Shown here: positions 1,771 through 56,869 of the stretch, piece by piece
Layout of the letters: the number at the start of each line of letters is the position of its first letter
Position numbering within the stretch: the first letter of the stretch is position 1
Source of the DNA: Cytophagales bacterium
GTDB lineage: Bacteria > Bacteroidota > Bacteroidia > Cytophagales > Spirosomataceae
Assembly: GCA_038235275.1 (NCBI GenBank)
Contig: JBBSUC010000029.1
Span: 4,545-68,544 of the forward strand
Direction of reading: 5' to 3'
DNA: 64,000 nucleotides
Notes under the pieces: model-generated
Database searches by the model: none
What the model was told of the DNA's origin: nothing
What the model saw: the letters and a program-made list of their open reading frames with translations, nothing else
Translations under genes and position numbers: made by a program

Positions 1771-3723
1771 TTACCGCAAAAGCATCACAGTACCCTTCTT
1801 GACAAAGTCCTTACCCGTGTTATCTCGGATGATGACTTTGTATACGTATGGGCCTTGCGGGGCGCGATCGCCGTTAATCGCGCCGTCCCAGCCCGTGCCG
1901 GGATCGGTAGTCTGAAAAATGGACTGCCCCCAGCGATTGTATATAATCATCTGGAAATTATCGTAGAAAGATCCGCTGGGCTTGAAAGTGTCGTTGATGC
2001 CGTCACTGTTGGGTGAAAAAGCATCGGGTAGGAATAGCGCGGCTTCGCGGCGAAAAAGAACCACGTTGGAATAACTTAGAAATGACCCATTTTTAGAACG
2101 TGAACGAATCTGATACTCGAACTCCTGCTCGTTGGGGTCGTCAAATTTCGGGTCGTAAATAAGGTTGGCACCGACGCCCGTCTCCGATGCCGACCCGCCT
2201 TTATTGAGTTTTACCACGAAATACCCGCCTACATCGTCGGTAAAGGGCGGATCTTCCGTCCATTTGATGAGTTGGCCTATATCCTTAAGGAAAATGGTGC
2301 AAATGGGCTTACTGGGTTCGGAGCGGTTTCCGCAGGCGTTTTCGTACAGAATGCGGTAACAGTAGGATCGTTCCGAAGTCTTGGCCTTTACGTCGGAGTA
2401 GCGATTAGTGTTCTCCGTGACGCCCACCTCCTGAAAGCCGGCTGTGACGTTGTCGGCCCGCTCGAAGATCATTTTGTAGGCGGGCGTGGTTCCCTGCGTG
2501 GGCGGAAAGGCCACCAGCGATACGCTGCCGTCCTGTTCCACGCTTACGATCGCCTGAGAAATAGTGCTGGGCTTCAGATCTGACTTGGCTGTGACCTCCA
2601 CTGGTGCCGACCGGGATTCGGCCTTCCCAACCGTGGCCACCAGCTGGTAGCGGTACGACACCCCACATTCGACATCGTTGTCCACATAGGAAATATCCTC
2701 GATTTTGGTAAATCTTTTGATCCGATTGCCATTGCGCAGTAGTTCGTAGCTTTTGAATTCCTGTGGCTGCGGGTACTGATTCCAGGTGAGGATGTTGCGC
2801 TCACTCTCGGCTTTCCCGTTCAGCACTACGGTGCATACTTCGTTGGATTCGGTCACGTTGCCGCAGGCATCGGTCGTACTCAGCTTGAGGCAATGTATTT
2901 GCCTGGGATCCAGAGATTGCAGGGTCAATTCCACATTACCCGTTTGGGAAGATTTTACTCCCGTCCCGACGTAGTTGCCTGACCCGGTTTTGACCATCAC
3001 CTCCACCTCAACTCCCCCCGCACTTTTGAAAGAAAGACCTACGGATCCGTCCGCTCGGGACTCCACCTGGCTAATGCTAATCTGGCTGTTCTGCTTACCG
3101 TTGATGGTCACCCGCAGCAAGGTTTTGTTACTGCCAAAACATCCTCCTGCGTTTTGGGTGTAGATTCCTCGGTAAAAAAGGATGCGGACCCCAGCGCCGA
3201 AGTAGTCGTGTTCTATCTCCAAAGCCCCGCCCTGATTGATGTATTCCGGGGCAGAGCCATCATTCCAGTCTACCTCGATCTGGTCGTATTGCTTGGAAAT
3301 GCTGTCGTCGGCAAAAATGAGCTTGACTTTTCCATCGGAACAGGGGACCGCCGTTATTTTGGGTGGAGTGCGGTCGCGCACGATTACCTCACGACAAAGA
3401 GTGATAGGACCCGCATTACTACTGCCTGCCTGTAGAATACGATATCTCCCGGGCTTATTGTAAGTGAATTGAGTGGCCTGAGGTAGGGATGACAGCGTTT
3501 CACCCTTATAATCGAAAACGAAACCTATATTATCAGCTCCGCTTACTGTATTCGCCACTTCCACTGTAAATGGTGCGCAGCCAATGAGCGGGTCAGTGCC
3601 TGTGGTCCCATTAATGGAGAATCCCCCTCCTCCCGCTTTGCACAAATCCTGCGCCGTAGTCACCGACCCCATTCCGGCAATCATCCACAGTAGCCAGCCC
3701 CAGCGGAATTCGCAATGTAACAT
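1771..3723 (-). CDS. secreted protein with T9SS type-B (gliding motility-associated) C-terminal sorting domain
   Basis: C-terminus LFLPDAFSPNSDGINDTFKP...RWGQSIF...GWDG matches the CHU_C/T9SS C-terminal domain. Start placed at the internal Met (MLHCEFRWGWLLWMIAGMGSVTTAQ) that gives a signal peptide. The ORF extends upstream to 3828. Confidence 0.7.
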   Translation of the reverse strand: MLHCEFRWGWLLWMIAGMGSVTTAQDLCKAGGGGFSINGTTGTDPLIGCAPFTVEVANTVSGADNIGFVFDYKGETLSSLPQATQFTYNKPGRYRILQAGSSNAGPITLCREVIVRDRTPPKITAVPCSDGKVKLIFADDSISKQYDQIEVDWNDGSAPEYINQGGALEIEHDYFGAGVRILFYRGIYTQNAGGCFGSNKTLLRVTINGKQNSQISISQVESRADGSVGLSFKSAGGVEVEVMVKTGSGNYVGTGVKSSQTGNVELTLQSLDPRQIHCLKLSTTDACGNVTESNEVCTVVLNGKAESERNILTWNQYPQPQEFKSYELLRNGNRIKRFTKIEDISYVDNDVECGVSYRYQLVATVGKAESRSAPVEVTAKSDLKPSTISQAIVSVEQDGSVSLVAFPPTQGTTPAYKMIFERADNVTAGFQEVGVTENTNRYSDVKAKTSERSYCYRILYENACGNRSEPSKPICTIFLKDIGQLIKWTEDPPFTDDVGGYFVVKLNKGGSASETGVGANLIYDPKFDDPNEQEFEYQIRSRSKNGSFLSYSNVVLFRREAALFLPDAFSPNSDGINDTFKPSGSFYDNFQMIIYNRWGQSIFQTTDPGTGWDGAINGDRAPQGPYVYKVIIRDNTGKDFVKKGTVMLLR

Positions 3724-3918
3724 TCTTATTCTGAGTAAATTTTGTTTCAAAATCGCCTGAAAAATAATTTGTTGCCGCGCGAAATGGGTTCGGAACGAAA
3801 CGGAAGGTCGTGAACCTTTGTTTCCCAAAGATCGAAGGTAAAGCTTTCCAAAGGAAGGGTTTACCTTTACGACTTACAACGCCCTGAGCGGCGAAACTAT
3901 TTTTCATCGAATGTACTA

Positions 3919-5196
3919 ATGAGCAATAATAATACCAAAATCCGTCTTGACTCCGTCGAAGATGCCATTGCGGATATAAAAGCGGGCAAGTTGATTATCG
4001 TCGTGGACGACGAAGATCGTGAGAATGAAGGCGATATGATCGGTGCCTCCCAAACGATCACTCCCGAACTTGTCAACCTTATGGCCCGCGAAGGGCGTGG
4101 CCTCATCTGCGTGTCGCTGACCGAAGAGCGCTGCCACGAACTGGGTCTCGACATGATGGTGCAGATCAACACGGCGGCCCACGAAACGGCCTTCACCGTG
4201 TCGGTGGATTTATTGGGCCACGGCTGTACGACGGGCATTTCGGCCTCCGACCGCGCCCAAACGATCCGTGCCCTGGTAAATCCCGATACCAAGGCAGAAG
4301 ACTTGGGTCGCCCCGGCCATATTTTCCCCCTGAAAGCCAAGGAGGGCGGCGTGCTGCGTCGCAGCGGCCACACCGAGGCCTCGCTCGACTTTGCCCGACT
4401 GGCCGGATTGACGCCCTCGGGCGTGCTGATCGAAGTCCTGAACGAGGATGGCTCGATGGCCCGGCTGCCCGAATTGCGCGTAATTGCCGACCGCCTGGAT
4501 ATGAAGTTGGTGACGATCAAGGATTTGATAGCCTACCGCTTGCGGGAGGAATCACTCATTAAGCGCGAAATTGGCGTGGATCTGCCTACCGAATGGGGGC
4601 ATTTCGACCTGATCGCTTACCGACAGCTCAACACCAACGAATTGCATCTGGCCCTGGTAAAAGGTACTTGGGAACCGGACGAGCCCGTGCTGGTACGCGT
4701 CCACTCTTCCTGCGTGACGGGCGACATTTTCGGCTCCTGCCGCTGTGACTGCGGTGGCCAACTCCACGCTGCCATGGATATGGTGGACAAAGCCGGGAAA
4801 GGCGTTGTCGTTTATATGAACCAGGAGGGGCGCGGGATCGGTCTTTTGAACAAACTGAAAGCTTACAAATTACAGGAAATGGGCCGCGACACCGTAGAGG
4901 CCAACCTCGAACTGGGCCTACCGATGGACGCCCGCGACTACGGCGTGGGGGCGCAGATTCTGCGGGATTTGGGTGTTTCCAAAATAAAACTGATTTCCAA
5001 TAATCCCAAGAAGCGCGTCGGTTTGATGGGCTACGGGTTGGAAATCGTAGATACGATCGGGATCGAAATTGCTTCCAATCCGTACAATGAAAAGTACCTG
5101 CTTACCAAGCGCGATAAGATGGGGCATAGTCTGCTCAACTTGTCTGCTAACGGGTTCAAAGGTGAGGCGGGACGCCCCGAGGCGTTAAAAGGTTAA
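3919..5196 (+). CDS. ribBA: bifunctional 3,4-dihydroxy-2-butanone-4-phosphate synthase / GTP cyclohydrolase II
   Basis: 425 aa. The N-terminal half is RibB-like ([10 protein letters not shown]...HTEA). The C-terminal half is GTP cyclohydrolase II (CDCGGQL zinc motif, NQEGRGIGL). Confidence 0.9.
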
Positions 5197-6620: not shown

Positions 6621-7439
6621 ATGGCTTCTTCTACCTCTGCCAAAGACCGCTGGATCGAAATTGCTGCCCGTGTGGGCCTGACGGCCAAAGGTTTCGTCTA
6701 TTCCCTGATCGGCATCCTTACTTTCATGGCAGCCTTCGAGTTGGGCAGCGGTGACGACAAGGGAGGCAAGTCCCAAGCCCTGCAATGGATCGAAGAGCAG
6801 CCCTTTGGGCAAGTCCTGCTAGGTCTGACTGCCCTCGGGCTGCTATGTTATAGCATCTGGCGATTAATCCAGGCTTTTCTTGATACCGAGGACAAAGGAA
6901 GTGACATGAAAGGTCTGGCCGTACGGGGACGGTACCTATTCAGCGGCTTGGTGTACTGCGCTTCCGCTTTTTACGCTGCTAAGCTACTGTTCGGTAACGG
7001 CTCGGACGAAGGCAGCGGCGACACGCGCGAAACGATCGTCCAAAAATTACTGGAACAGCCCTTCGGCCAATGGCTTGTGGGAGTTGTTGCGGCGGGCGTA
7101 ATGGCCGTCGGAGTGTACCAAATTTACTACGCTCTTTCTGAAAAGCATCGCAAGAAAATTCAGGAGTCGAAGCTGGATAACAGAGTAAGGGAAACACTGC
7201 TGGCGTCTGGCAAAGTGGGCTATATTGCACGAGGTATTGTATGGCTGCTTATCGGCTATTTATTCCTGCAGGCCGCCCTACAGGCTGACTCCGACGAGGC
7301 GGGCGGCTCCAATTCCGCTTTCAGCTTCCTGGAACAGCAGTGGGGTTCATGGGTTTTGGCCGTGGTGGCATTGGGGCTTTTGTGCTACGGAATCTTTACG
7401 TTCCTCCGGGCGCGGTACCAGCCCGTCAGTACGCGTTGA
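6621..7439 (+). CDS. DUF1206 domain membrane protein (tandem paralog)
   Basis: 272 aa. Collinear similarity to 5729..6559 (RWIE..G..A.G.VY.L.G.LTF, ...YQP). Confidence 0.7.
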   Translation: MASSTSAKDRWIEIAARVGLTAKGFVYSLIGILTFMAAFELGSGDDKGGKSQALQWIEEQPFGQVLLGLTALGLLCYSIWRLIQAFLDTEDKGSDMKGLAVRGRYLFSGLVYCASAFYAAKLLFGNGSDEGSGDTRETIVQKLLEQPFGQWLVGVVAAGVMAVGVYQIYYALSEKHRKKIQESKLDNRVRETLLASGKVGYIARGIVWLLIGYLFLQAALQADSDEAGGSNSAFSFLEQQWGSWVLAVVALGLLCYGIFTFLRARYQPVSTR

Positions 7440-7556: not shown

Positions 7557-8144
7557 ATGTCTTTAAATACCATTATCCACCGTCAATTGTCCACTCAAAA
7601 AGAAGTCGTCCGCCAGTGCCAACGGGAAAATCCCTTCGCCCAAAAGCGATTATACGATCGCTACGCGAATCGGCTTTACCGCCTTGTCTGCCGCTACGTG
7701 TCCAACTCGATGGAAACGGAGGAGGTGTTGATGAACGGTTTTTTGAAAATCTTCAAAGCCATTGTCACCTTCGAGTACCGCAGCGACGACGAACTGGAAG
7801 TGTAGATGAAGCGCATCGTGGTCAACGAAGCCTTGATGTACCTGCGGAAGACGAAGAAAGAGCAATGGCTTTTTGCCGATACGGATTTGGAAGAAACTAC
7901 CCTTGCCGCCCAGCCCACCACCGCCGAAGGCGACCTCCACGCCGAGGGAATTCACGAGCTGATTCTGCACTTGCCCGACGGCTATCGGACGGTTTTCTGC
8001 CTCCACGCGCTGGAAGGATACACGCATCAGGAAATAGGGGCGATGCTGAACATCAGCGAGAACACCTCGAAATCACAGCTTAGCAAAGCCCGCGCGGCCT
8101 TGCAGAAATTATTGGTCAAGCACGGATACCATTATGAAAGATAA
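7557..8144 (+). pseudogene. ECF-type RNA polymerase sigma-70 factor interrupted by in-frame TAG
   Basis: Sigma region 2 (FAQKRLYDRYANRLYRLVCRYV) lies in ORF 7500..7805. Region 4 with HTH (GYTHQEIGAMLNISENTSKSQLSKARAALQ) lies in ORF 7806..8144. Both are in the same frame, separated only by TAG at 7803-7805. The junction reads ELEV*MKRIVVNEALMYLRK, where W (TGG) would be expected. Confidence 0.6.
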
Positions 8145-47535: not shown

Positions 47536-48549
47536 TCACTGCTCATAAACTGCCAAAGCCTCCTTCATCCGCCTTTTAATAATTTGTCGGAGCTTCTCAG
47601 GCTCCAGTACGGTCACGCCTTCGCCAAAGCCGAGTATTTCTTTTTCAAGCTCGAAGTTATGCTGCACTTTCAGCTTAATGACCATGCCGTCGGGACCACG
47701 CTCCACGACCTGCTGCGAAGGGTGGAGCGGCTTGGTTTCGACGTAGGGCGCATGAAGCGCGGTGACGAATAACTTCACTTTGATGGGCCGCAAATTCCCA
47801 CTCACCGTAACCCCAATGACATCGCGATAATACAGTTCAGGATCAATTAGTTGATTGGGAATGTACTCGACGTCGGGCGCGGGTTTGAGGGCCATGATTC
47901 TGTCCAGGGCCAGATTTGTAACGTTCCGCTGGTCGGTGCGAACGCCCACCGCGAACCAGCGGTTTTTGAATTCTTTCAGCCACCAGACGTGAAACGTAAA
48001 CGTCTGCGAGTTGCGGGCCGAAAAAGACTGATACGTTAATTGAATCGCTTTCTTCTGAACCACGGCCTGGTACAGGTCGTCCAGGAAGTGCAGCCCTTTC
48101 AGGTTATCGTTTTTCTCAAAATCAATCACCGGAGCCACCTTTCGGGCCGACGAAAAAACGTGGTCTTCCAGCTTCTGCACCACTTCATTGAGGGCTGTAA
48201 AGTGCGAAAAACTCTTGAACTGTTTCAAAACCTCCACCGCTTCGTTCATCCGCGCCAAGTCGCCGTCCGAGAGCGGAATGTTGGTGATGCTGTAATTGGG
48301 ATCTTCGTAGGTGTAGTACTTCTTCTCCCGGATGATGATGGGCGCAAAATACCCCAGCTTGTCGCTCCGCATCATCTGCAAATCGGCCTGCACCGTGCGG
48401 CGGCTAATGCCTTTGTCGATGCCCTCGTATTCGTAGAGCGATTCCGAAACCTTTTCCATCAGATCTTCGAGCGTCCAGTTGCGCTGCCGGTTGCGCAGAC
48501 AGGCGTCGATGGTTTTGTAGCGGACGAGGGCGTTGCGGTTGGCGGGCAT
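47536..48549 (-). CDS. WYL-domain transcriptional regulator (HTH-WYL-C-terminal extension)
   Basis: N-terminal HTH (LVRYKTIDACLRNRQRNWTLEDLMEKV...ISRRTVQADLQMMR). Central WYL-type domain (FTFHVWWLKEFKNRWFAVG). Start moved to Met MPANRN; the ORF extends upstream to 48648. Confidence 0.75.
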   Translation of the reverse strand: MPANRNALVRYKTIDACLRNRQRNWTLEDLMEKVSESLYEYEGIDKGISRRTVQADLQMMRSDKLGYFAPIIIREKKYYTYEDPNYSITNIPLSDGDLARMNEAVEVLKQFKSFSHFTALNEVVQKLEDHVFSSARKVAPVIDFEKNDNLKGLHFLDDLYQAVVQKKAIQLTYQSFSARNSQTFTFHVWWLKEFKNRWFAVGVRTDQRNVTNLALDRIMALKPAPDVEYIPNQLIDPELYYRDVIGVTVSGNLRPIKVKLFVTALHAPYVETKPLHPSQQVVERGPDGMVIKLKVQHNFELEKEILGFGEGVTVLEPEKLRQIIKRRMKEALAVYEQ

Positions 48550-48783
48550 GAGCAGGAAAGAAAAAATATTTTCAGAAAAATAGAAAGTTTTTTCATCTGC
48601 GCAAAAACACTGCGCACTAGCCACTAACCTTTGTAGCGACGAAAGCAACGTAGTCGAACCTGATGCGGGTTTCTTTATAGCCCCATAGTGTCGGTAGTCG
48701 CTGACTGCCGATATGCTGTCGGCTGCGCCCTGTTTTTCGTCATTTGATCTGTCGGTCAGAGGTTCAATTCCTCTTCCTGCTTC

Positions 48784-48840
48784 GGCAGGATAGCTCAGTG
48801 GTTAGAGCAACAGTAAATGCGGGTTCGAGTCCTGCTACCA
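48784..48840 (+). ncRNA. truncated tRNA-like element (acceptor stem + D-arm + T-loop-like segment, no anticodon arm)
   Basis: GGCAGGA-TA-GCTCAGTGGTTAGAGC gives perfect tRNA 5' acceptor and D-arm consensus. The 3' TCCTGCT-A-CCA pairs with the 5' acceptor, and GGTTCGAGTCC is the T-loop consensus. Only ~20 nt separate D-arm and 3' acceptor, so total length is ~57 nt. Confidence 0.4.
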
Positions 48841-49183
48841 CCCGAAAGGGTGGTCCGTTGGTGGAAGGCGAAGCAGACCACTTCATAAAAAAGGTCACCT
48901 TGAAAAACCAGTAGAGACGCTGCCCCGTGAACTATTCGGCTTGCCGGATACGCCACAATTGAGTCGATGCCAGCGGGCAGACCAGGGGACAGCCGGGCCG
49001 GAAGGCCGCTTCTGGAAGAGCATTCAGTATTGATTCTGCCAACGATTTCCCTGTTGGCACCCGGTGCTGAACCCTTTTTCCGAACCGCCTTCCCGAAGGT
49101 CGTCGCCACCTGCCTCCGCGTGGGCTGAATGGGTAGCGGCTCGCTGGTTTATATTTAGCAACCACTTTTTATCAAAAATAACC

Positions 49184-50290
49184 ATGAAAACCGTACGCAT
49201 CCAGACCCAGGAAATTGGATTGTTATTCAAGAACGGCGATTTCCACAAAGTACTTACACCCGGCAAGCACTGGATTTGGCCCAACGAAACGCTGTATTTC
49301 TACAAGCGCAGGGATTTGCTGCAAAACCCACCCCGTGATTTGACGATACTGCTTTCGTATCCCGAAATCGCCGCCGAACTGGATGTGGTCGAAGTAAAAG
49401 ATAACGAAATTGCGATACAGTACGAAGACAACCTGTTCCGGGCCGTGCTGCCTAAAGGGCGCTGGGCCTACTGGAAAGGCGTGAAAAACTACCATTACCA
49501 GATTCTGGACATCACGCAACTGGCGATTCCGGCGGAAGTTGATTTAGCCTCGCTGATGCCGCAGCCCCTGGGTGCCTACGTGCGGACGACAACCGTCGAA
49601 GGCCACGAAAAAGGTACACTGTTCATCGACTGGAAATTCGAGAGCGTGCTGGAACCCGGCGTCTATCACTGGTGGAAAAACAACACGCCCGTCCACGTGC
49701 TGAAAGTGGACACGCGCCGCCAGCAAATGGAAATTTCGGGCCAGGAAATTTTGACTAAGGACAAAGCCACCATTCGGCTAAGCTTCTACGTGCAGTACCA
49801 CGTTCGGGATGTGATCAAGGCGTTGGTCGAAAACAAAGACTACGACAAGCAACTGTACGTACAAATGCAGTTGGCCCTGCGGGCCTACATCGGCGGCTTG
49901 ACGCTGGACGAGTTGTTGGATAAGAAAGCTGACATGACGGATGCCATCCTGCAAGCTACGGCTGCAAAAGCCGGAGAACTGGGCGTCGAGTTGAGCGGTG
50001 GCGGGGTGCGCGACATCATCCTGCCGGGCGATATGCGCGACATCATGAACCAGGTGTTGACGGCCGAAAAGAAAGCCCAGGCCAACATCATCATGCGTCG
50101 GGAAGAAACCGCCTCGACCCGCAGCTTGTTGAACACGGCCAAGCTGATGGAGGATAACGAGATGCTGTGGAAATTGAAAGAAATGGAGTACGTCGAGAAA
50201 ATCGCCGAAAAAATGAACACCATTTCCGTCTCCGGCAGCGGTCAAGTCATTGACCAGTTGAAGCAGATTTTTGTTTCTTCTAAAAATTGA
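49184..50290 (+). CDS. SPFH/band-7 domain protein
   Basis: 368 aa from MKTVRIQTQEIGLLFKNGDF. The SPFH core is followed by a coiled-coil region (AEKKAQANIIMRREETAS...). Upstream part of the ORF (49064..49183) rejected. Confidence 0.8.
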   Translation: MKTVRIQTQEIGLLFKNGDFHKVLTPGKHWIWPNETLYFYKRRDLLQNPPRDLTILLSYPEIAAELDVVEVKDNEIAIQYEDNLFRAVLPKGRWAYWKGVKNYHYQILDITQLAIPAEVDLASLMPQPLGAYVRTTTVEGHEKGTLFIDWKFESVLEPGVYHWWKNNTPVHVLKVDTRRQQMEISGQEILTKDKATIRLSFYVQYHVRDVIKALVENKDYDKQLYVQMQLALRAYIGGLTLDELLDKKADMTDAILQATAAKAGELGVELSGGGVRDIILPGDMRDIMNQVLTAEKKAQANIIMRREETASTRSLLNTAKLMEDNEMLWKLKEMEYVEKIAEKMNTISVSGSGQVIDQLKQIFVSSKN

Positions 50291-50394
50291 ACCCCACCGT
50301 AATGAACTCCCCCCTCTCCCCTTTTCAGGAGAGGGGGTCAGGGGGTGAGGTGAAAACGAACACGATACATTTGAATTAGTAAACAATCCCAATC

Positions 50395-51930
50395 ATGGAA
50401 ACTGACTTGATTACCATCGAAGACATTTTGGTGCTTGCTCCCATCCCCACCGACCTGCACACGCCTTTCCTGCGGGTGGCCAATGGCTTGACGCAGCGGG
50501 CCAAATATCCCAAAGAAAAAGTTCTGGGCTTGCTGGCGCAGATGTTCCAAAACCCAAAAAAATACGCCTACTCCAAAAACAAGGTCACCAATCTGGCCCG
50601 CACCATTTACGCCCTCAACAAGCAAGGCATCTCCGTCCCGTTGAGCGAAGCCGGGGCTGCTTACCTGCTGCCAGAACCGACGCCCTACGCCATTCAGGCC
50701 GAGGGAAAGCAGCAGGCCACGGCCTTCGACCTGCGAACGGAGCGGCTGCCCTACGCTATTTTTGGTCGCGAACACATCGAAGACGGCGCCTTGCAGCAAA
50801 TGGAAACCGCCGCCAGTCTACCCATTGCGGTGGCCGGGGCGCTCATGCCTGACGCGCATCAGGGCTACGGCCTGCCCATCGGTGGGGTACTGGCCACGGA
50901 GCCGAACACCATCATTCCGTTTGCCGTCGGTGTCGATATCGCCTGCCGAATGTGCCTGTCGGTTTTTGACCTGCCGCCGGATTACTTGAAGCGCGAGCCG
51001 CATTTGCTCAAAAAGACTTTGGTCGAAAAAACCAAATTCGGGATGGGCGGCGAAGTGCGCGAGAAGTTCGACGAGAGCGTCATGGACTTGCCTGAGTGGC
51101 AGGCGACCAAGGTCATTCGCGATCTGAAAGACAAGGCATACCGGCAATTGGGAACGTCCGGTACGGGCAATCACTTCGCGGAGTGGGGCATCATGGACGT
51201 GTACGCCCAAGACGAAGCCAACGGCCTCGACCTGCCGCCGGGCCAATACATGGCGCTGCTGACGCATTCGGGTTCGCGGGGTTTTGGCGGGACGGTGGCG
51301 AATTATTACTCCAAACTCGCCATGCAGAAAACCCGCCTGCCCAAACAAGCCGCGCACCTGGCCTGGCTCGACCTGAACACCGAAGAAGGGCAGGAATACT
51401 GGATTGCCATGAACCTGGCGGGCGAATACGCCTCGGCCAATCACCACGAAATCCATAATAAAATAGCCAAAGCCCTGCGCGAAAAACCACAGCTGATGAT
51501 TGAAAACCATCATAACTTCGCCTGGAAAGAGCAACTGGCCGACGGCCGCGAGGTGATGGTGCACCGCAAGGGTGCTACCCCCGCCGGACCCGGCGTGCTG
51601 GGCATCATTCCGGGTTCGATGACCAAACCCGGCTTCGTGGTGCGGGGTCGCGGCCACGCCGATTCCATTAATTCGGCTTCGCACGGGGCCGGGCGGCTGA
51701 TGTCGCGGACGAAAGCCCTCAACAGCATCACGCAGTCGCAGTTGAACAAGGCGTTGCAGGAAGCCGACATTCAGCTCATCGGCGGTGATCTGGACGAGGC
51801 CCCGATGGTGTACAAAGACATCGACACCGTCATTGACGCCCAGCGCGAATTGGTGGAGGTACTGGCGAAGTTTACGCCGAAAATTGTGAGGATGGCGGAT
51901 GCTAATCGGAAGGAGGGGCGGGAGGATTGA
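50395..51930 (+). CDS. rtcB: RtcB-family RNA ligase with ~110-aa N-terminal extension
   Basis: Metal-binding MPDAHQGYGLPIGGV, GTSGTGNHF, HSGSRGFG, and the C-terminal NHHNFAW motif characteristic of RtcB. At 511 aa it is longer than the ~400-aa canonical enzyme. Confidence 0.85.
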   Translation: METDLITIEDILVLAPIPTDLHTPFLRVANGLTQRAKYPKEKVLGLLAQMFQNPKKYAYSKNKVTNLARTIYALNKQGISVPLSEAGAAYLLPEPTPYAIQAEGKQQATAFDLRTERLPYAIFGREHIEDGALQQMETAASLPIAVAGALMPDAHQGYGLPIGGVLATEPNTIIPFAVGVDIACRMCLSVFDLPPDYLKREPHLLKKTLVEKTKFGMGGEVREKFDESVMDLPEWQATKVIRDLKDKAYRQLGTSGTGNHFAEWGIMDVYAQDEANGLDLPPGQYMALLTHSGSRGFGGTVANYYSKLAMQKTRLPKQAAHLAWLDLNTEEGQEYWIAMNLAGEYASANHHEIHNKIAKALREKPQLMIENHHNFAWKEQLADGREVMVHRKGATPAGPGVLGIIPGSMTKPGFVVRGRGHADSINSASHGAGRLMSRTKALNSITQSQLNKALQEADIQLIGGDLDEAPMVYKDIDTVIDAQRELVEVLAKFTPKIVRMADANRKEGRED

Positions 51931-51968: not shown

Positions 51969-52853
51969 CTACCTCTCGTTGAGTTTTCGTTTTAGTTCTT
52001 CGATTTCCTTTTGAGCGTCGGTCAGTGCTGATTTGGTGTCCGTTAATTCGGATTTGGTTTCTGTCAATTCCGATTCTGCCTCCGACAGTTTTGCTTTCAG
52101 TTTTCCAGCCCGCTCATCGAACATCGCCTCGACGCTCCGCCAGGCTTCTTGCTCGGTTTCGATTCTTCGCTTTTCTTCCGGGTCAGTTCCGGTATGGTGC
52201 AAGAGGTCGGTCATAATTTTCACTTCTTCAAGGTCAGCGTCGTGGTTGAACTGCTTGATGATCTGAGCATTATCAACGAAGTTCCCCTGTTCGAAGACAC
52301 TCAGCAGTTTATCGAGCCGGGTTTGGTACTTCGACTCGATCCTCGGCAACTGAATCACAAAACAGTCGTGGGTCAGTCTTTCGATGAATTCGCTCTTTTT
52401 CTCGATGATTTGGTCGGCGATCATATCCATGTATTGCCGCTGTACCCGTACCGCCGAGGTTTCGATTTCGGGCAGTGTGAAACCGAGCAGATAGATCGTT
52501 ACGATGGGCAGCGGCTCTTTCTTTTTCCCGGTTGAGGTCTCCACCTCGTCCTCCTTTTTGTACTGCTCAGCCAGGTAGTTGCGGAAACGCATGAGGTCGA
52601 TCTGATTCTTGGCCTTCTGAATCTCGATCAGCACTTTCTTGAATTCCCCGTCCTGGTTTTTGATCGTGGCGATGAAGTCCAGGCGAAAGACCGCCAACCC
52701 GGCCATTTGGTCGGTATAAGTAAATTCCTGCGGCTTTACCTGTACGTGTTCAATAGTCTCGTCCAGCAGCGTACCGATGAAGAATTTCGCAATGCGCTCG
52801 TCTTCCATGAGCCGCTTGAAGACTACGTCGTAGATGGGGTTGGCGATGATCAT
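51969..52853 (-). CDS. PD-(D/E)xK nuclease family (Rpn/YhgA-like putative recombination-promoting nuclease/transposase) with C-terminal coiled coil
   Basis: N-terminal NPIYDVVFKRLMEDERIAKFFIGTLLDETIEHV resembles the Rpn-family N-terminus. Acidic/basic core (FRLDFIA...VLIEIQKAK). C-terminal heptad-like LSEAESELTETKSELTDTKSALTDAQKEIEELKRKL. Confidence 0.45.
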   Translation of the reverse strand: MIIANPIYDVVFKRLMEDERIAKFFIGTLLDETIEHVQVKPQEFTYTDQMAGLAVFRLDFIATIKNQDGEFKKVLIEIQKAKNQIDLMRFRNYLAEQYKKEDEVETSTGKKKEPLPIVTIYLLGFTLPEIETSAVRVQRQYMDMIADQIIEKKSEFIERLTHDCFVIQLPRIESKYQTRLDKLLSVFEQGNFVDNAQIIKQFNHDADLEEVKIMTDLLHHTGTDPEEKRRIETEQEAWRSVEAMFDERAGKLKAKLSEAESELTETKSELTDTKSALTDAQKEIEELKRKLNER

Positions 52854-53281: not shown

Positions 53282-54094
53282 ATGCCAACTCCCTATCTTA
53301 GATGGACTGGATCGAAAAGATGGCTAATAAAAGATCACATAAAAGATTATCTACCAGTAAGTTTTAATAATTATCATGAACCATTCCTAGGGGGAGGGGC
53401 TATGTTTTTCTATTTAATAACAAACAACCCCAATAGTATTAAGAAATTTAATCTTTCCGATGTAAATGAGGAGTTGATCAACTGCTACATTCAGGTACGC
53501 GATAAGCCGAAAGATTTAGTTAACACGTTAAAATCTTTCAACAATACTAAACAGCACTACTACTACATTAGAGATAAAATGTTTAGAGATGATATTAGTA
53601 GGGCTGCGAGATTTATTTTTCTAAACCGTACTTCCTTCAATGGTATTTATCGTGTTAATAATCAAGGAAAGTATAATGTACCTTACGGATATAGACAAAA
53701 AGTTGATTTTGTTACTGAGGACCTAATTCTTTCTGTTAGCAACTCATTAAAGTCAGTTGAGTTAAATTGTCGGAGTTTTGAAGAATCCATAGAACAAATC
53801 CAAAGAAAAGACCTTGTTTTTATTGATCCACCTTATACAGTAGCGCATGAAAATAATGGATTTATAGAGTATAACCAAAAATTATTTTCTTGGGAAGATC
53901 AGATAAGACTCCGAGATTTTATTGAAAAAGTTAAATTGAAGGGAGCACATTTTATTCTCACTAATGCTAGTCATCCATCAATTTCAGAATTATACGCTGG
54001 TATTGGTGCGTCTAAAACATTAAGTCGTATATGTAAAGTTGGCGGCAGAAACAAGACTCGTGGAGATTTCAATGAACTATTAATATATGGTTAA
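53282..54094 (+). CDS. Dam-family (alpha-class) DNA N6-adenine methyltransferase
   Basis: N-terminal YLRWTGSKRWL (Dam RxxKWAGGK-like SAM motif). FLGGGAM. Catalytic DPPY in FIDPPYTVAH. AT-rich coding sequence. Confidence 0.85.
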   Translation: MPTPYLRWTGSKRWLIKDHIKDYLPVSFNNYHEPFLGGGAMFFYLITNNPNSIKKFNLSDVNEELINCYIQVRDKPKDLVNTLKSFNNTKQHYYYIRDKMFRDDISRAARFIFLNRTSFNGIYRVNNQGKYNVPYGYRQKVDFVTEDLILSVSNSLKSVELNCRSFEESIEQIQRKDLVFIDPPYTVAHENNGFIEYNQKLFSWEDQIRLRDFIEKVKLKGAHFILTNASHPSISELYAGIGASKTLSRICKVGGRNKTRGDFNELLIYG

Positions 54095-55044
54095 AATTTT
54101 ACCTTGTTCTTTAAATAAAGAATTTTATTACAGACTATTTGGCCAGAAGGTTGAATATTGATAGAAGGATTTTTAGGTTGCTTCAAATATAAACAGGTTA
54201 CAGATTCGAATCTTTGGCTTATGAGAATTGAAGCAATTGTAAAAATTTTGGGCCCAAGAGACAAAAATAAGATATCCCTTTTGTAGATATTATTACTCAC
54301 AATCTCGGCATAAGTTCTGAAAATATATTCAAGATCTTGAATTGGGCATTTGACCCAATGGTTTATATCCCCCTTCAATATAGTTTTAATGTCACTCATA
54401 TTATTTGGTGAATAGTTTGGATCCAAAGAACTCGCAATAATTCCCAACGTAGAGTTCGGTTCGATATCCTCTATCACGGCCTTGACCAGATATGGAGAAT
54501 ATCCCACGCCTAATACTAATAAGGTACGAACATTTGCACTCAAAGACCCTTCATGAGAAGGAAGTGAACTAATTTCGCTATATGTGTAGTCTAGGAATTT
54601 TGCCTTCTCGTATATCCCAATCGAATAAGTTAAGTATACTTCAATGTCCTTTTCTTGTTGAAAACGAAGAAAATTTAGAATACCAGAATACCATAGTCGT
54701 GCCATTGAGGTGTAGTCAACTAAAATACGAACGGTAGCAGTATCATCGAGTTTCGTAAAGATAGTAATCAACTCACTGTAAATACCCTTTTCCTCTGCGG
54801 AAGAAATTAGCACTGCCTTGGAGCCCTTTTCTGAATAGAATAAATCATTTTGCTTTCTAACAGGGTTGTGTTCAAACTCCTTAAAACCTAAGACTAATGG
54901 ATAATGAATTTGCTCAAAATCAATACTTTTTGCGACAAAAGTGGCGCGACTTTCATAACCTGACGCAAATATTCCAATATCGAAAGCAATATCTTTAATT
55001 TCAGATATTGCTATGTTACGTACGCTAATAAGATTAAGCATCAA
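54091..55044 (-). CDS. hypothetical protein, third gene of phosphoesterase-ATPase operon
   Basis: 317 aa. Its start overlaps the ATPase stop by 11 nt. AT-rich. No motif recognised. Confidence 0.5.
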   Translation of the reverse strand: MMLNLISVRNIAISEIKDIAFDIGIFASGYESRATFVAKSIDFEQIHYPLVLGFKEFEHNPVRKQNDLFYSEKGSKAVLISSAEEKGIYSELITIFTKLDDTATVRILVDYTSMARLWYSGILNFLRFQQEKDIEVYLTYSIGIYEKAKFLDYTYSEISSLPSHEGSLSANVRTLLVLGVGYSPYLVKAVIEDIEPNSTLGIIASSLDPNYSPNNMSDIKTILKGDINHWVKCPIQDLEYIFRTYAEIVSNNIYKRDILFLSLGPKIFTIASILISQRFESVTCLYLKQPKNPSINIQPSGQIVCNKILYLKNKVKF

Positions 55045-56869
55045 AATTTATAGATAATTGTTGGAAATTTGGAATACTTGAAAGACGTCGGGAATCACCT
55101 TTCCTAGGTAGAAGCTTAAATCTTGGAGAAAGTATAAAGGCCAAATGAAATACTCCTTCCATTGTTGGCATATAGTCCGGATTTTGCGAGTTTATGTTTG
55201 GATAAATTAATCCTCGTTGAACAGCTCTTTCGATTAACTTCCACTCAATATCGCCAATTGTATTTGTTATCTCAATTGATGATATCTGTTCTAAATTGAG
55301 TTTGTTATTATGGATATGATCGTACATAAAATTTCCAATTGACAAAATAAATTCATGCAATCCCGTTCCAAAGTTTTTTTCGATTCGATAACGATTCAGT
55401 TCACGCTCGGAAATTGACGTGAGAACCATGTTCTGATTGCTGTATGATATTACTGGCTGTGGTAACTCAATATGGATTGGTGATTTTTGCTTGTTATACT
55501 TACCTGATTCGACAACTGATAACATTTCGCTGAATATATCAATCAGCTTCCGAGGGTTAGCATCACCAACATTGATGACAGTTTTTGCACCACAGTACAA
55601 TTCCATATTTGATTTACCCGTTCGTGTTGCCTCATACTCTTTTAAATATAATAAAGCTCTTAATTTTCTCCCGAATTGATTACCAAATTTACCTATTTCT
55701 TTGCTAGCCAATAACTCAACACCCCGTCGCTTGGTAGCTTCGTTGGTATGCTTAAGAAAAAGCGAAAGCGTTTCATTTCCTATCACTAATTCCTCAATAT
55801 TTGCTAAGGTCAGCTTTTTCTTATTAGAATTCAAAATTTCATCATAGGAAATCATTTTATTATCCAATAGATATGATTTTCCGAACAAATCCTGAAAAGT
55901 ATAGTCAGCAAACTCTGGCTTCGACAATTGAGCTCGTTTCTTAAATAACTTGTAAGCGTTACTATTATTAGGAATTGCTCTGTATCCGAAAGAAACATCC
56001 TGATCAATGTATACGTATTCTACATCATGTCGAATATCTAGCGGTACGTTTAAGTTCGTTTCCAGAGTGTAGTGACAATAAGGTAACGTTGTAAATTTAA
56101 AGAAAATATTCCCCATATTCGCTCTCATATAGGAATTCAAGATTCTATGATGAAATTCGTCAAGCATCTCGATTTCGTCAATGCAGACAAACCAGGAAGT
56201 ATAGTCAGGAAATTGAAGTCCCCTACTAATAATCTTTATGCCATCGATAAGCGGATCATAAAGGTCAAGCTCAAAGGTAAGGCCGATCGGCTCTTCGTCA
56301 CGAACGATATTATATATTTTCTTTTCGAGATTACGCTTTGATCGGAGAGTAACAATTCGTTCCAGTTCTAATAGAATATCATCTATTGAAACTATTTTTG
56401 TGGCCTCAGGAAACCAAGTTCTCGAAAGGTTGCGTACTATTTCAACCTCCTTTACAACACGCTCTTCATCCACTTCAATGTAAGCAGAAAGGCAACTCCT
56501 AAATGTTTCAAGCAAAGCGATGCAAGAAGCAATATTCATTAGCCAACGAAAATGATATTCTTTTTCTTGATCATTCTGCCAGTCTTTGTTTTTTAGCCCC
56601 CCTACAAACTTTGTTTTTGTCGATATGTGAATCCCAATGTAAGTCTTATTTAGGATAATATCTTTGGCAATTACATTTTCCAATAAAGACAGATGATCAT
56701 GAGAAAGTACTTTAAGAAGTGCAGTCTTGCCTGAACCCCTAGATCCAATAATAATCTGGTTTTTAGGAGATAATAGTCTTTCAAATGAATGGGTCACTAC
56801 AAAAGTATCAACCAACTCCCTTTTGAGTAGGTAACGCGCATTATGTAGTGCAAACAAATTTCTATTCAT
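55034..56869 (-). CDS. P-loop NTPase (Walker A/B ATPase) of unassigned family
   Basis: 611 aa. Walker A IIIGSRGSGKTALLKVL. Putative Walker B FVCIDEIEMLDEFHH ~180 aa downstream (ABC/AAA_21-like spacing). Overlaps flanking genes by 4 and 11 nt. Confidence 0.65.
   Translation of the reverse strand: MNRNLFALHNARYLLKRELVDTFVVTHSFERLLSPKNQIIIGSRGSGKTALLKVLSHDHLSLLENVIAKDIILNKTYIGIHISTKTKFVGGLKNKDWQNDQEKEYHFRWLMNIASCIALLETFRSCLSAYIEVDEERVVKEVEIVRNLSRTWFPEATKIVSIDDILLELERIVTLRSKRNLEKKIYNIVRDEEPIGLTFELDLYDPLIDGIKIISRGLQFPDYTSWFVCIDEIEMLDEFHHRILNSYMRANMGNIFFKFTTLPYCHYTLETNLNVPLDIRHDVEYVYIDQDVSFGYRAIPNNSNAYKLFKKRAQLSKPEFADYTFQDLFGKSYLLDNKMISYDEILNSNKKKLTLANIEELVIGNETLSLFLKHTNEATKRRGVELLASKEIGKFGNQFGRKLRALLYLKEYEATRTGKSNMELYCGAKTVINVGDANPRKLIDIFSEMLSVVESGKYNKQKSPIHIELPQPVISYSNQNMVLTSISERELNRYRIEKNFGTGLHEFILSIGNFMYDHIHNNKLNLEQISSIEITNTIGDIEWKLIERAVQRGLIYPNINSQNPDYMPTMEGVFHLAFILSPRFKLLPRKGDSRRLSSIPNFQQLSINFDA

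Follow-up and report, generated by a model that had tools for sequence, protein, structure and literature searches.

A probable RNA-repair operon of a Cytophagales bacterium with a large structured RNA containing permuted tRNA-like modules, an SPFH protein and the RNA ligase RtcB

Background

RNA-repair operons that combine a Band-7 gene, a tRNA-like RNA called 'b7a-tRNA' and the gene of the RNA ligase RtcB were described by Burroughs and Aravind in 2016 (Nucleic Acids Res), as cited in bioRxiv 10.1101/312249. In the account given by that preprint, the authors proposed a scaffold or cofactor role in RNA repair, YrlA-like RNAs sometimes accompany Band-7, and the existence of b7a-tRNA was not validated experimentally as of 2018; in the literature searched, the name itself is used only there. 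An SPFH gene has also been found inside the rtc locus of Pseudomonas aeruginosa (PMC13086221). Here, we analyzed a locus of a Cytophagales bacterium (family Spirosomataceae, contig JBBSUC010000029.1) in which the gene of a WYL-domain regulator is transcribed divergently from a structured RNA, an SPFH/Band-7 gene and rtcB. The locus occupies positions 47536–51930 of a stretch of 64,000 nucleotides (hereafter the window, to which coordinates refer unless a related locus is named), and it is probably a WYL-controlled RNA-repair operon of the Band-7/tRNA-like RNA/RtcB class, in which the RNA would act as the subunit of a ribonucleoprotein (RNP).

As far as the cited account goes, comparative genomics has already made this type of locus known, and the SPFH partner, which the initial annotation of this stretch considered less expected, is a described part of such operons. 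The same annotation referred to an association of WYL proteins with RtcB as previously noted, which we did not find documented in the literature mentioning both. What appears to be new is how far the RNA extends and how it is built, together with the operator and an extra domain of RtcB. The locus family touches the question of what the substrates of bacterial RtcB are and why RtcB often travels with tRNA-shaped RNAs (Y RNAs, YrlA, 'b7a-tRNA'), and it offers a compact and very widespread test case (547 genome loci, the inspected ones almost all from Bacteroidota, with relatives in Enterobacteria).

Methods

Searches with the SPFH protein gave more than 7900 homologues and 547 genome loci, of which the best 80 were fetched (nearly all from Bacteroidota, labelled L001 onward). 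The homologues of its encoded proteins set the window within Spirosomataceae, close to Salmonirosea and Persicitalea. A covariance model of the tRNA-like part of the RNA (R1) was built from a 30-sequence MAFFT alignment, and a second one (R2) was used for the 3′ domain. The pseudoknot was judged by a permutation test, because MAFFT put tails of different linker length out of register. A sigma-70 promoter scan was uninformative for a Bacteroidetes genome.

Results

Two permuted tRNA-like modules in a large structured RNA

According to the list of open reading frames (ORFs) and a Pfam scan, the order of the locus is WYL/WCX regulator (minus strand), structured RNA, SPFH and rtcB (all plus strand), and Pfam matches bore out the three gene calls of the initial annotation at their positions. 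The divergent gap between the WYL and SPFH genes (48550–49183, 634 bp), which had been described as noncoding with a tRNA-like remnant, is almost filled by a conserved structured RNA of ~500 nt (~48640–49150). The Rfam tRNA model (RF00005) matched it at 48784–48843 (34.5 bits against a gathering score of 29), but the match includes no anticodon arm and its acceptor stem is poor or mismatched; the Rfam YrlA model (RF02553) matched at 48750–48812 (34.6 bits, E 2.8e−5, model positions 23–85). At these scores the tRNA-like element is real and far beyond chance, but the word 'remnant' does not fit, because the closed hairpins described below covary and the element is one part of the ~500-nt conserved RNA.

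Module 1 (48749..48813, plus strand) was defined by the YrlA model and covariation as a circularly permuted, YrlA-type tRNA-like module. Its closing stem CUGU/ACAG (48749–52 with 48810–13) encloses a variable-loop-like CGGUC, the T arm (48758–48774), a closed acceptor hairpin with a UUCG loop (48775–48790), U8-A9 and the D arm (48793–48808), and the relatives follow the same plan, with a 4–5-bp stem around an NGGUC spacer (5 nt), T arm, closed acceptor-like hairpin, U8-A9 and D arm. Judged from this alignment, module 1 has the YrlA arrangement: it corresponds to a tRNA whose anticodon loop has been opened and whose acceptor end is closed. All four helices covary (unfitted MAFFT alignment, n = 30, and also n = 71), and the bases that never vary correspond to those of tertiary contacts in tRNA, U8, A14, G18, G19, A21, T54, T55, C56, and A58.

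Module 2 (48819..48868, plus strand), recognized by comparison with relatives, is truncated in this lineage and has no anticodon arm: a T arm (48819–48835) and a closed acceptor hairpin ACCACCC-GAAA-GGGUGGU (48837–48854) are followed by a D-loop-like remnant, CCGUUGGUGGAAGG (48855–48868). In most relatives the module, set off from module 1 by a short linker, is longer: its T arm and closed acceptor hairpin are joined by a full D arm and by an anticodon stem of 5 bp that carries a 7-nt loop. For the tRNA-like part as a whole (44 pairs in nine helices), 95.5% of the cells were paired in the unfitted MAFFT alignment (n = 30), compared with 74% for shuffled and ~44% for slid controls, and 32 of the 44 pairs showed changes on both sides; with 71 sequences, 96.4% of the cells were paired and 38 of the 44 pairs had double changes.

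Covariance models, proposed as a check in the initial annotation, recognized the element in the window and in relatives. R1 matched the window at 48747–48918 (98.2 bits, E 1e−33), and all its matches to real tRNA arrays in the loci stayed below 62 bits and had no closed hairpins. The Rfam YrlA model recognized both modules of a full-form relative, L039 (33.1 and 32.0 bits); everywhere its matches were limited to model positions 23–85, and the Ro-binding helix was absent.

An ordinary cloverleaf, with the 3′ strand of hairpin 1 and the 5′ strand of hairpin 2 as the acceptor stem, was tried and rejected (55.7% of the cells paired vs. 93% and 98% for the two closed hairpins). The element has neither an acceptor stem formed by its 5′ and 3′ ends nor an anticodon arm, and ARAGORN reported no tRNA gene anywhere in the window and none at the element in all loci. 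The modules would be tRNA mimics that keep the tRNA elbow and the acceptor/T minihelix, and they could not be charged because their acceptor end is closed.

Further domains of the RNA

Upstream of module 1, two covarying hairpins and two single-stranded motifs form a 5′ domain (48660..48718, plus strand) conserved in all lineages. The first hairpin, GGGUU-UCUUUAU-AGCCC (48667–48683), occurs with the stem variants GGGUU/AGCCC, GCGUU/AGCGC, CAGUU/AACUG, GGAUU/AAUCC, and GUGUU/AGCAC; sequence comparison further shows the conserved CAUAGUGU, a variable hairpin (48692–48710) and the conserved AUAUGCUG.

Downstream of the modules, loop-tail covariation defines an H-type pseudoknot (48869..48896, plus strand). 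Its stem GAAG/CUUC (48870–73 with 48881–84), conserved among loci in the form AGAAG-loop-CUUCU, encloses the loop CAGACCA, and after an A-rich linker, AUAAAAAA (48885–92), the tail GGUC (48893–96) pairs with GACC of the loop (48876–79). Loop and tail read GACC/GGUC in the window and GGCC/GGCC, CAUCG/UGAUG, CACCG/UGGUG, UUCAGC/GCUGAG, or GACUUG/CGAGUC elsewhere. Over 46 loci, cognate loops and tails formed on average 4.85 bp and non-cognate ones 3.31 bp, and none of 5000 permutations reached the observed total.

The ~290 nt from the pseudoknot to the SPFH ATG are constant in length among loci. They include a 3′ domain of ~245 nt (48906..49150, plus strand), outlined by RNAalifold and R2, with a long-range closing helix (~48906–48925 with 49131–49150), a hairpin of variable sequence and a long arm whose internal loops are conserved (...GCCAGCGGGCAG ... 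CUGCCUCCGC...GGCUGAAUGGG); single-sequence folds agree on all three. RNAalifold found almost no structure in a gappy alignment of all 36 leaders and succeeded only within one family; with 21 sequences it gave 45 pairs, 38 of them with compensatory changes, and 86% of the cells were paired (67% in shuffled and 35–48% in slid controls). R2 matched 47 loci; its match to the window is weak (48899–49150, 25.3 bits, E 0.002) because the model was built from Chitinophagaceae, where the RNA exceeds 600 nt. An alignment restricted to Spirosomataceae gave the same topology with 29 compensatory pairs. Covariation across 70+ Bacteroidota genomes supports every element of the RNA. In Rfam release 15 no family was found beyond the two partial matches (YrlA and tRNA), and preQ1-I remained unmatched at E ≤ 10 over 48400–50500 and over 3350–4050 of L039.

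Conservation and lineage variation

A single-sequence nhmmer search with 48740–48900 showed that 67 of the 80 loci have a homologous element 250–450 nt upstream of SPFH and in the same orientation, and R1 located it in 70 of the 80 as well as in the window, across several orders of Bacteroidota and with place and strand kept. The extent of the modules varies. Module 1 is present in the window and in L001, where module 2 is reduced to its T arm, closed hairpin and D-loop-like CCGUUGGUGGAAGG. In L002 and L010 module 1 stands alone, and in L003–L006 nothing is kept but a T arm, its closed hairpin and a GGUUGG motif; Citrobacter and E. coli have a minimal unit of T arm, closed hairpin and GGUUG upstream of a slipin gene. 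The conserved core seems to be the acceptor/T minihelix with its elbow, since this minimal unit alone is left in L003–L006, Citrobacter, and E. coli.

Genuine tRNA genes accompany the operon in some lineages. Among Chitinophagaceae and related loci, many have arrays of 8–14 tRNA genes that lie on the operon strand, ~2 kb before the RNA (upstream, ~0–1800, in L013, L022, L027, L035, L036, L038, L039, L045, L052, L062, L067, and L078; on both sides in L042 and L056). Genes for an AAA ATPase and for an RNase H-like protein (PF04308) stand between array and RNA, and a gene for an unassigned protein of 430–520 aa between SPFH and RtcB. Such loci look like 'spare tRNAs plus repair' islands; the window has no upstream array and none of the array-associated genes. 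A genuine-looking class II tRNA-Tyr(GUA) gene stands between operator/promoter and RNA in L012 (3259–3344), L020 (3121–3205), L049 (~3251–3335), L053, L058, L063, and L068; in L028 and L061 (3887–3971), where permuted modules are absent, it precedes SPFH by 30 nt. These tRNA-Tyr genes, none of which occurs in the window, may be the 'b7a-tRNA' of the 2016 paper. In L019, two isolated module-1 matches (7292–7351 and 7726–7787, R1 positions 5–66, 43 and 36 bits) lie ~2–2.7 kb downstream of SPFH and may be additional free-standing YrlA-like units.

SPFH protein, spacer hairpin and RtcB

The SPFH/Band-7 ('slipin family') protein (49184..50290, plus strand, 368 aa; Pfam Band_7, E 4.6e−31) has a maximum Kyte-Doolittle(19) value of 1.2, i.e., no transmembrane segment, and is predicted from its sequence to be soluble, unlike stomatin or HflK/C. 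An internal repeat at its N-terminus is a partial duplication of the SPFH start. Among the viral contigs and phage records searched, no relatives were found.

The 10-bp GC hairpin between SPFH and rtcB (50310..50337, plus strand), already reported in the initial annotation, is exact and unique within the window: CCCCCTCTCC (50310–50319) pairs with GGAGAGGGGG (50328–50337) around an 8-nt loop, and no U tract follows. Strong hairpins of unrelated sequence occupy this spacer in seven of eight close relatives (L001, L003, L004, L005, L006, L007, and L015, all GC-rich and with no U tract; the spacer of L002 has only 13 nt). Recurrence of the hairpin with no conservation of its sequence suggests selection for structure, as an mRNA stabiliser, processing site or partial terminator. 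Short palindromes of the type CCCCUCC...GGAGGGG were also seen in L059 (~3895–3990), L017 (~1040–1085) and upstream in L046, and the window hairpin (50305–50350) has a similar flavour; they are inserted at different points, including the AU-rich stretch before the SPFH start codon, and may represent a mobile REP-like repeat of Bacteroidota.

RtcB (50395..51930, plus strand, 511 aa; Pfam RtcB, E 6.5e−88, aa 135–498) consists, according to alignment and AlphaFold2, of an N-terminal helical domain (aa ~8–88), a linker and the catalytic core (aa ~95–500). The motifs MPDAHQGYG, DIAC, GTGNHF, HSGSRG, NHHN, and HGAGR align with those of solved RtcBs; the enzyme retains the motifs for metal binding and for the GMP-histidine, and its catalytic residues are intact. 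The N-terminal extension noted before is present, but its length of ~110 aa was an overestimate: the extra piece measures ~75–90 aa, since aa 95 of the query aligns with chain aa 19 of solved Thermus and Pyrococcus RtcBs. AlphaFold2 models it confidently as a helical bundle (aa 8–88, pLDDT 87); the region is alignable in 33 related loci, and a word-index search with the N-terminal 134 aa returned only eight RtcB fragments.

Of 70 loci whose flanks are long enough, 54 have a co-oriented RtcB gene after SPFH, and where RtcB is not encoded its place is taken by another repair enzyme, a PNKP phosphatase-domain protein (Runella) or an RlaP nucleotidyltransferase (Citrobacter, E. coli). Such arrangements correspond to the modular 'syntax' of Burroughs and Aravind. 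Of the expected co-occurrence, SPFH, RtcB and the RNA (54/70 and 70/80 loci) are indeed conserved together, but the WYL gene accompanies only about one third of the related loci (divergent homologue in 25 of 74).

WYL regulator, operator and promoter

The regulator (47536..48549, minus strand, 337 aa, starting at an internal Met of the longer listed ORF) has the helix-turn-helix (HTH)-WYL-WCX architecture of PafBC-like transcription regulators, as judged from Pfam (WYL, aa 155–222, E 3.8e−10; WCX, aa 255–332, E 8e−15), PADLOC (WYL model, E 6e−26) and comparison with solved structures, of which PafBC (entry 7p5x, E 3e−5) is the closest. No HTH model matched the N-terminus, and the DNA-binding part was assigned by position and the PafBC alignment.

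A palindrome, TGCGCA-AAAACAC-TGCGCA (48598..48616; consensus TRCGCA-N7-TGCGYA), is conserved across WYL loci: 26 of 27 have it at a distance of 40–50 nt from the start codon of the WYL gene. It was also seen ahead of the RNA in ~9 loci that lack a WYL match in the vicinity, and in the non-WYL loci (445 kb) it was found only 11 times, mostly at the equivalent place. On this distribution, it is the probable operator of the WYL protein, common to both divergent promoters. It is followed after 8 nt, a distance fixed in the loci inspected, by a box TAACCTTTG (48625..48633, plus strand) that resembles TAnnTTTG, which we take to be the Bacteroidetes −7 consensus; all WYL loci inspected have a conserved nnCTTTG box after the operator. 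Transcription would start at ~48638–48645. PafBC, the closest solved relative, occupies a site immediately before the −10 box and is activated by single-stranded DNA; the present regulator may accordingly be either a repressor that leaves the operator or a PafBC-like activator bound just upstream of the −7 box.

Neighbouring island

The locus had been said to abut an AT-rich, defence-like island directly. Such an island is nearby (GC 0.34–0.36 over ~53.0–58.0 kb vs. 0.5–0.6 on either side), but the contact is only approximate, because one gene (51969–52853, minus strand) separates it from rtcB. This 294-aa ORF, convergent with rtcB and with a coiled-coil C-terminus, had no significant Pfam, NCBIfam or PADLOC match. 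The island encodes a Dam-family type II methyltransferase (53282–54094), a CARF-family protein (54091–55044; PADLOC CARF6, E 2e−49) and a P-loop ATPase of the Sll1717 family (55034–56869). These genes (53282–56869) look like a defence island whose composition is unrelated to the repair operon.

Discussion

Proposed function and alternative explanations

The rightward unit would begin with the ~500-nt structured RNA, followed by the soluble SPFH protein and by RtcB with its helical N-domain. In the mechanism we favour, products of nucleic-acid damage would bind the WYL domain and turn the operon on, and the RNA would become the nucleic-acid subunit of an RNP that probably forms on an oligomer of SPFH and is in contact with RtcB. 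Such an RNP could concentrate or orient RtcB on broken tRNA-shaped substrates with 2′,3′-cyclic-phosphate and 5′-OH ends. The scaffold role of the RNA with SPFH and RtcB is proposed by analogy with Y RNA/YrlA and Ro60. Several observations weigh against this reading. The WYL gene is present in only about a third of related loci, and regulation therefore varies; the RNA of the window is a reduced form, with no D and anticodon arms in module 2 and a weak R2 match; both the start of transcription and the absence of a terminator are deduced from the sequence only; and the RNA could act purely in cis.

This last alternative, a leader resembling a riboswitch or attenuator, is a possibility to be taken seriously, albeit not a likely one. 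In this case a ligand, RNA or protein (damaged or uncharged tRNA, or RtcB itself, are candidates) would be sensed by the pseudoknot and the 245-nt domain, which would then set the translation or stability of the SPFH-rtcB message. The RNA is contiguous with the SPFH ORF, its closing helix ends ~33 nt before the ATG and is followed by the conserved CUUUAUUAAAA and an A/U-rich stretch, no terminator is recognizable in the sequence between RNA and ORF, and the pseudoknot is shaped like small ligand-binding ones (5-bp stem, A-rich linker, loop-tail pairing). However, no Rfam riboswitch family matched at E up to 10, the closing helix leaves the start codon uncovered, and tRNA-shaped modules that keep all tertiary bases are typical of trans-acting mimics such as YrlA. 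Leader and RNP roles are compatible and not mutually exclusive.

A more elaborate form of the RNP idea seems doubtful to us, namely that the RNA (~500–650 nt) represents a new class of large structured bacterial RNAs and forms the nucleic-acid centre of a vault-like repair particle whose soluble cage is made of SPFH. In this particle, the tandem tRNA mimics with closed acceptor ends would dock it to the machinery that handles tRNA or serve as bait for toxins that cleave tRNA, cleavage of the RNA would yield 2′,3′-cyclic-phosphate fragments for the WYL protein, and RtcB would reseal both the bait and cellular tRNAs.

Slightly less probable again is that the mimics serve as decoys or baits for tRNA nucleases (anticodon nucleases, colicin-like toxins), absorbing the attack or producing an inducing cleaved-RNA signal. 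The full-form module 2 keeps the shape of an anticodon loop (7 nt in 63 of 71; among these 63, U33 in 56 and a purine at 37 in 60), its anticodon varies (at least 18 identities), its D arm sometimes becomes Leu-type alongside Leu anticodons, closed acceptor ends are useless for translation, and many loci hold 8–14 spare tRNA genes just upstream. Against this, the RNAs of the window, L001–L006, and L010 have no anticodon arm, so the conserved core function cannot depend on the anticodon loop, and no toxin gene is linked to the locus.

It is most improbable that the permuted modules are pre-tRNAs, from which cleavage, joining of the outer ends by RtcB and opening of the acceptor loop by RNase P/Z would yield functional tRNAs, as in Cyanidioschyzon merolae. 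Module 2 does have its parts in exactly the order of a permuted tRNA gene (T arm, acceptor 3′ strand, short loop, acceptor 5′ strand, D arm, anticodon arm), the ligase is encoded next door, and the anticodons vary like those of real tRNAs. Yet the acceptor stems have only 5–6 bp, a discriminator/CCA context is missing, as is any cleavage motif of the bulge-helix-bulge or another type, bacteria have no splicing endonuclease, module 1 has no anticodon loop, module 2 of the window has neither D nor anticodon arm, and a few anticodons are nonsense or unused ones (CUA, UUA, AGG).

Least credible of all is a functionless, decayed tRNA gene or chance juxtaposition of T and D arms from tandem tRNAs: the Rfam tRNA score is above gathering with the anticodon arm missing, real tRNA arrays give weak R1 matches, and tandem tRNAs, a false-positive class, can mimic YrlA (Chen et al. 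2014, PMC4201824), but the cloverleaf acceptor stem pairs far less often than the closed hairpins with their compensatory changes at every position, place and strand are kept in 70 genomes of several Bacteroidota orders, ARAGORN calls nothing at the element, and covariation contradicts this origin, a recent-duplication artefact being excluded by the diversity of the aligned sequences (57–61% mean column identity).

The RNP mechanism is the preferred reading, and if it is true, it would link SPFH scaffolds to RNA repair and represent a second, Ro-independent solution to the same problem as Ro60-YrlA. The RNA stands among the larger conserved structured RNAs with no Rfam family, combining two permuted tRNA mimics, a pseudoknot and a 245-nt closed domain. 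The parts (promoter and operator, covariation-defined RNA helices, soluble SPFH, RtcB with an extra domain) are defined well enough for tests.

Comparison with known systems

Two likenesses are limited to shape. The pseudoknot shares the topology of the small, A-rich H-type pseudoknot of preQ1-I, but it has a shorter loop and no Rfam match; and the order of the tRNA parts resembles that of the permuted tRNA genes of C. merolae (PMC3978253), but shows no sign of tRNA maturation.

The regulator, with its WYL and WCX domains and a palindromic, putative operator in its own divergent promoter region, has the traits of the WYL-regulator class. It shares its domain order with PafBC-type proteins (also the WYL regulators BrxR, CapW, and DriD) and would, like them, control a damage or defence response. 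In PafBC promoters the operator stands at a fixed distance upstream of the −10 box; here 8 nt separate it from the −10-equivalent box. The similarity to PafBC is weak (E 3e−5), and a single gene takes the place of the PafB/PafC pair.

A Band_7 gene, a co-oriented RtcB with its catalytic residues and a conserved tRNA-like noncoding RNA are the traits that make this locus, in our estimate, a probable member of the Band-7/tRNA-like RNA/RtcB repair class. As that class of Burroughs and Aravind is presented in bioRxiv 10.1101/312249, it is alike in having a Band-7 gene beside RtcB and a predicted tRNA-like noncoding RNA; b7a-tRNA, however, 'strongly resembles an authentic tRNA', whereas the RNA described here has permuted modules, a pseudoknot and two further domains over ~500 nt.

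With YrlA, the modules share the order of stem, T arm, closed acceptor stem and D arm, and the same tertiary bases. YrlA of the rsr-yrlBA-rtcBA operons of Salmonella and others also lies beside RtcB and divergent from a ligand-sensing regulator. In contrast, the RNA of the window has no Ro-binding helix (model positions 1–22 and 86–114 unmatched, 34.6 bits being below the gathering score of 69), its modules are arranged in tandem in a much larger RNA, its partner is SPFH, and WYL replaces RtcR. No TROVE/rsr gene was found among the flanking genes (WYL, SPFH, RtcB and the 294-aa ORF), farther parts of the window not being scanned for TROVE. The regulator is HTH-WYL-WCX and not CARF with a sigma-54 AAA+ domain, and the operon has no rtcA; the locus works like the Rtc system but is not a member of it.

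The nearest bridge to the Rtc system is the slipin unit of Enterobacteria (Citrobacter freundii NZ_CP151862 and E. coli STEC639), whose slipin is homologous over its full length (36–37% identity). It shares the upstream T arm, closed acceptor hairpin and GGUUG, a divergent ligand-sensing regulator and a downstream repair enzyme. The regulator is RtcR (CARF, sigma-54 promoter) and the enzyme an RlaP nucleotidyltransferase, and the RNA seems minimal, with no pseudoknot or large domain detected and an R1 score of only 13 bits. In Citrobacter (L082, 2960–6913), rtcR, a sigma-54-type promoter (TGGCAC-N5-TGGCA), the T arm with closed hairpin and ACUGGUUGUUAA, slipin and RlaP are inserted as a unit between yjbD (DUF3811) and lysC; in the E. 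coli stretch shown (L081), rtcR is not annotated. The analogy drawn in the initial annotation, an RNA-repair locus with WYL in the place of RtcR and a tRNA-mimicking RNA in a Y-RNA-like place, is upheld by the YrlA model match, the co-conservation, the putative operator and the rtcR gene of Citrobacter, where the slipin gene with its upstream T arm and closed acceptor hairpin sits divergent to rtcR itself.

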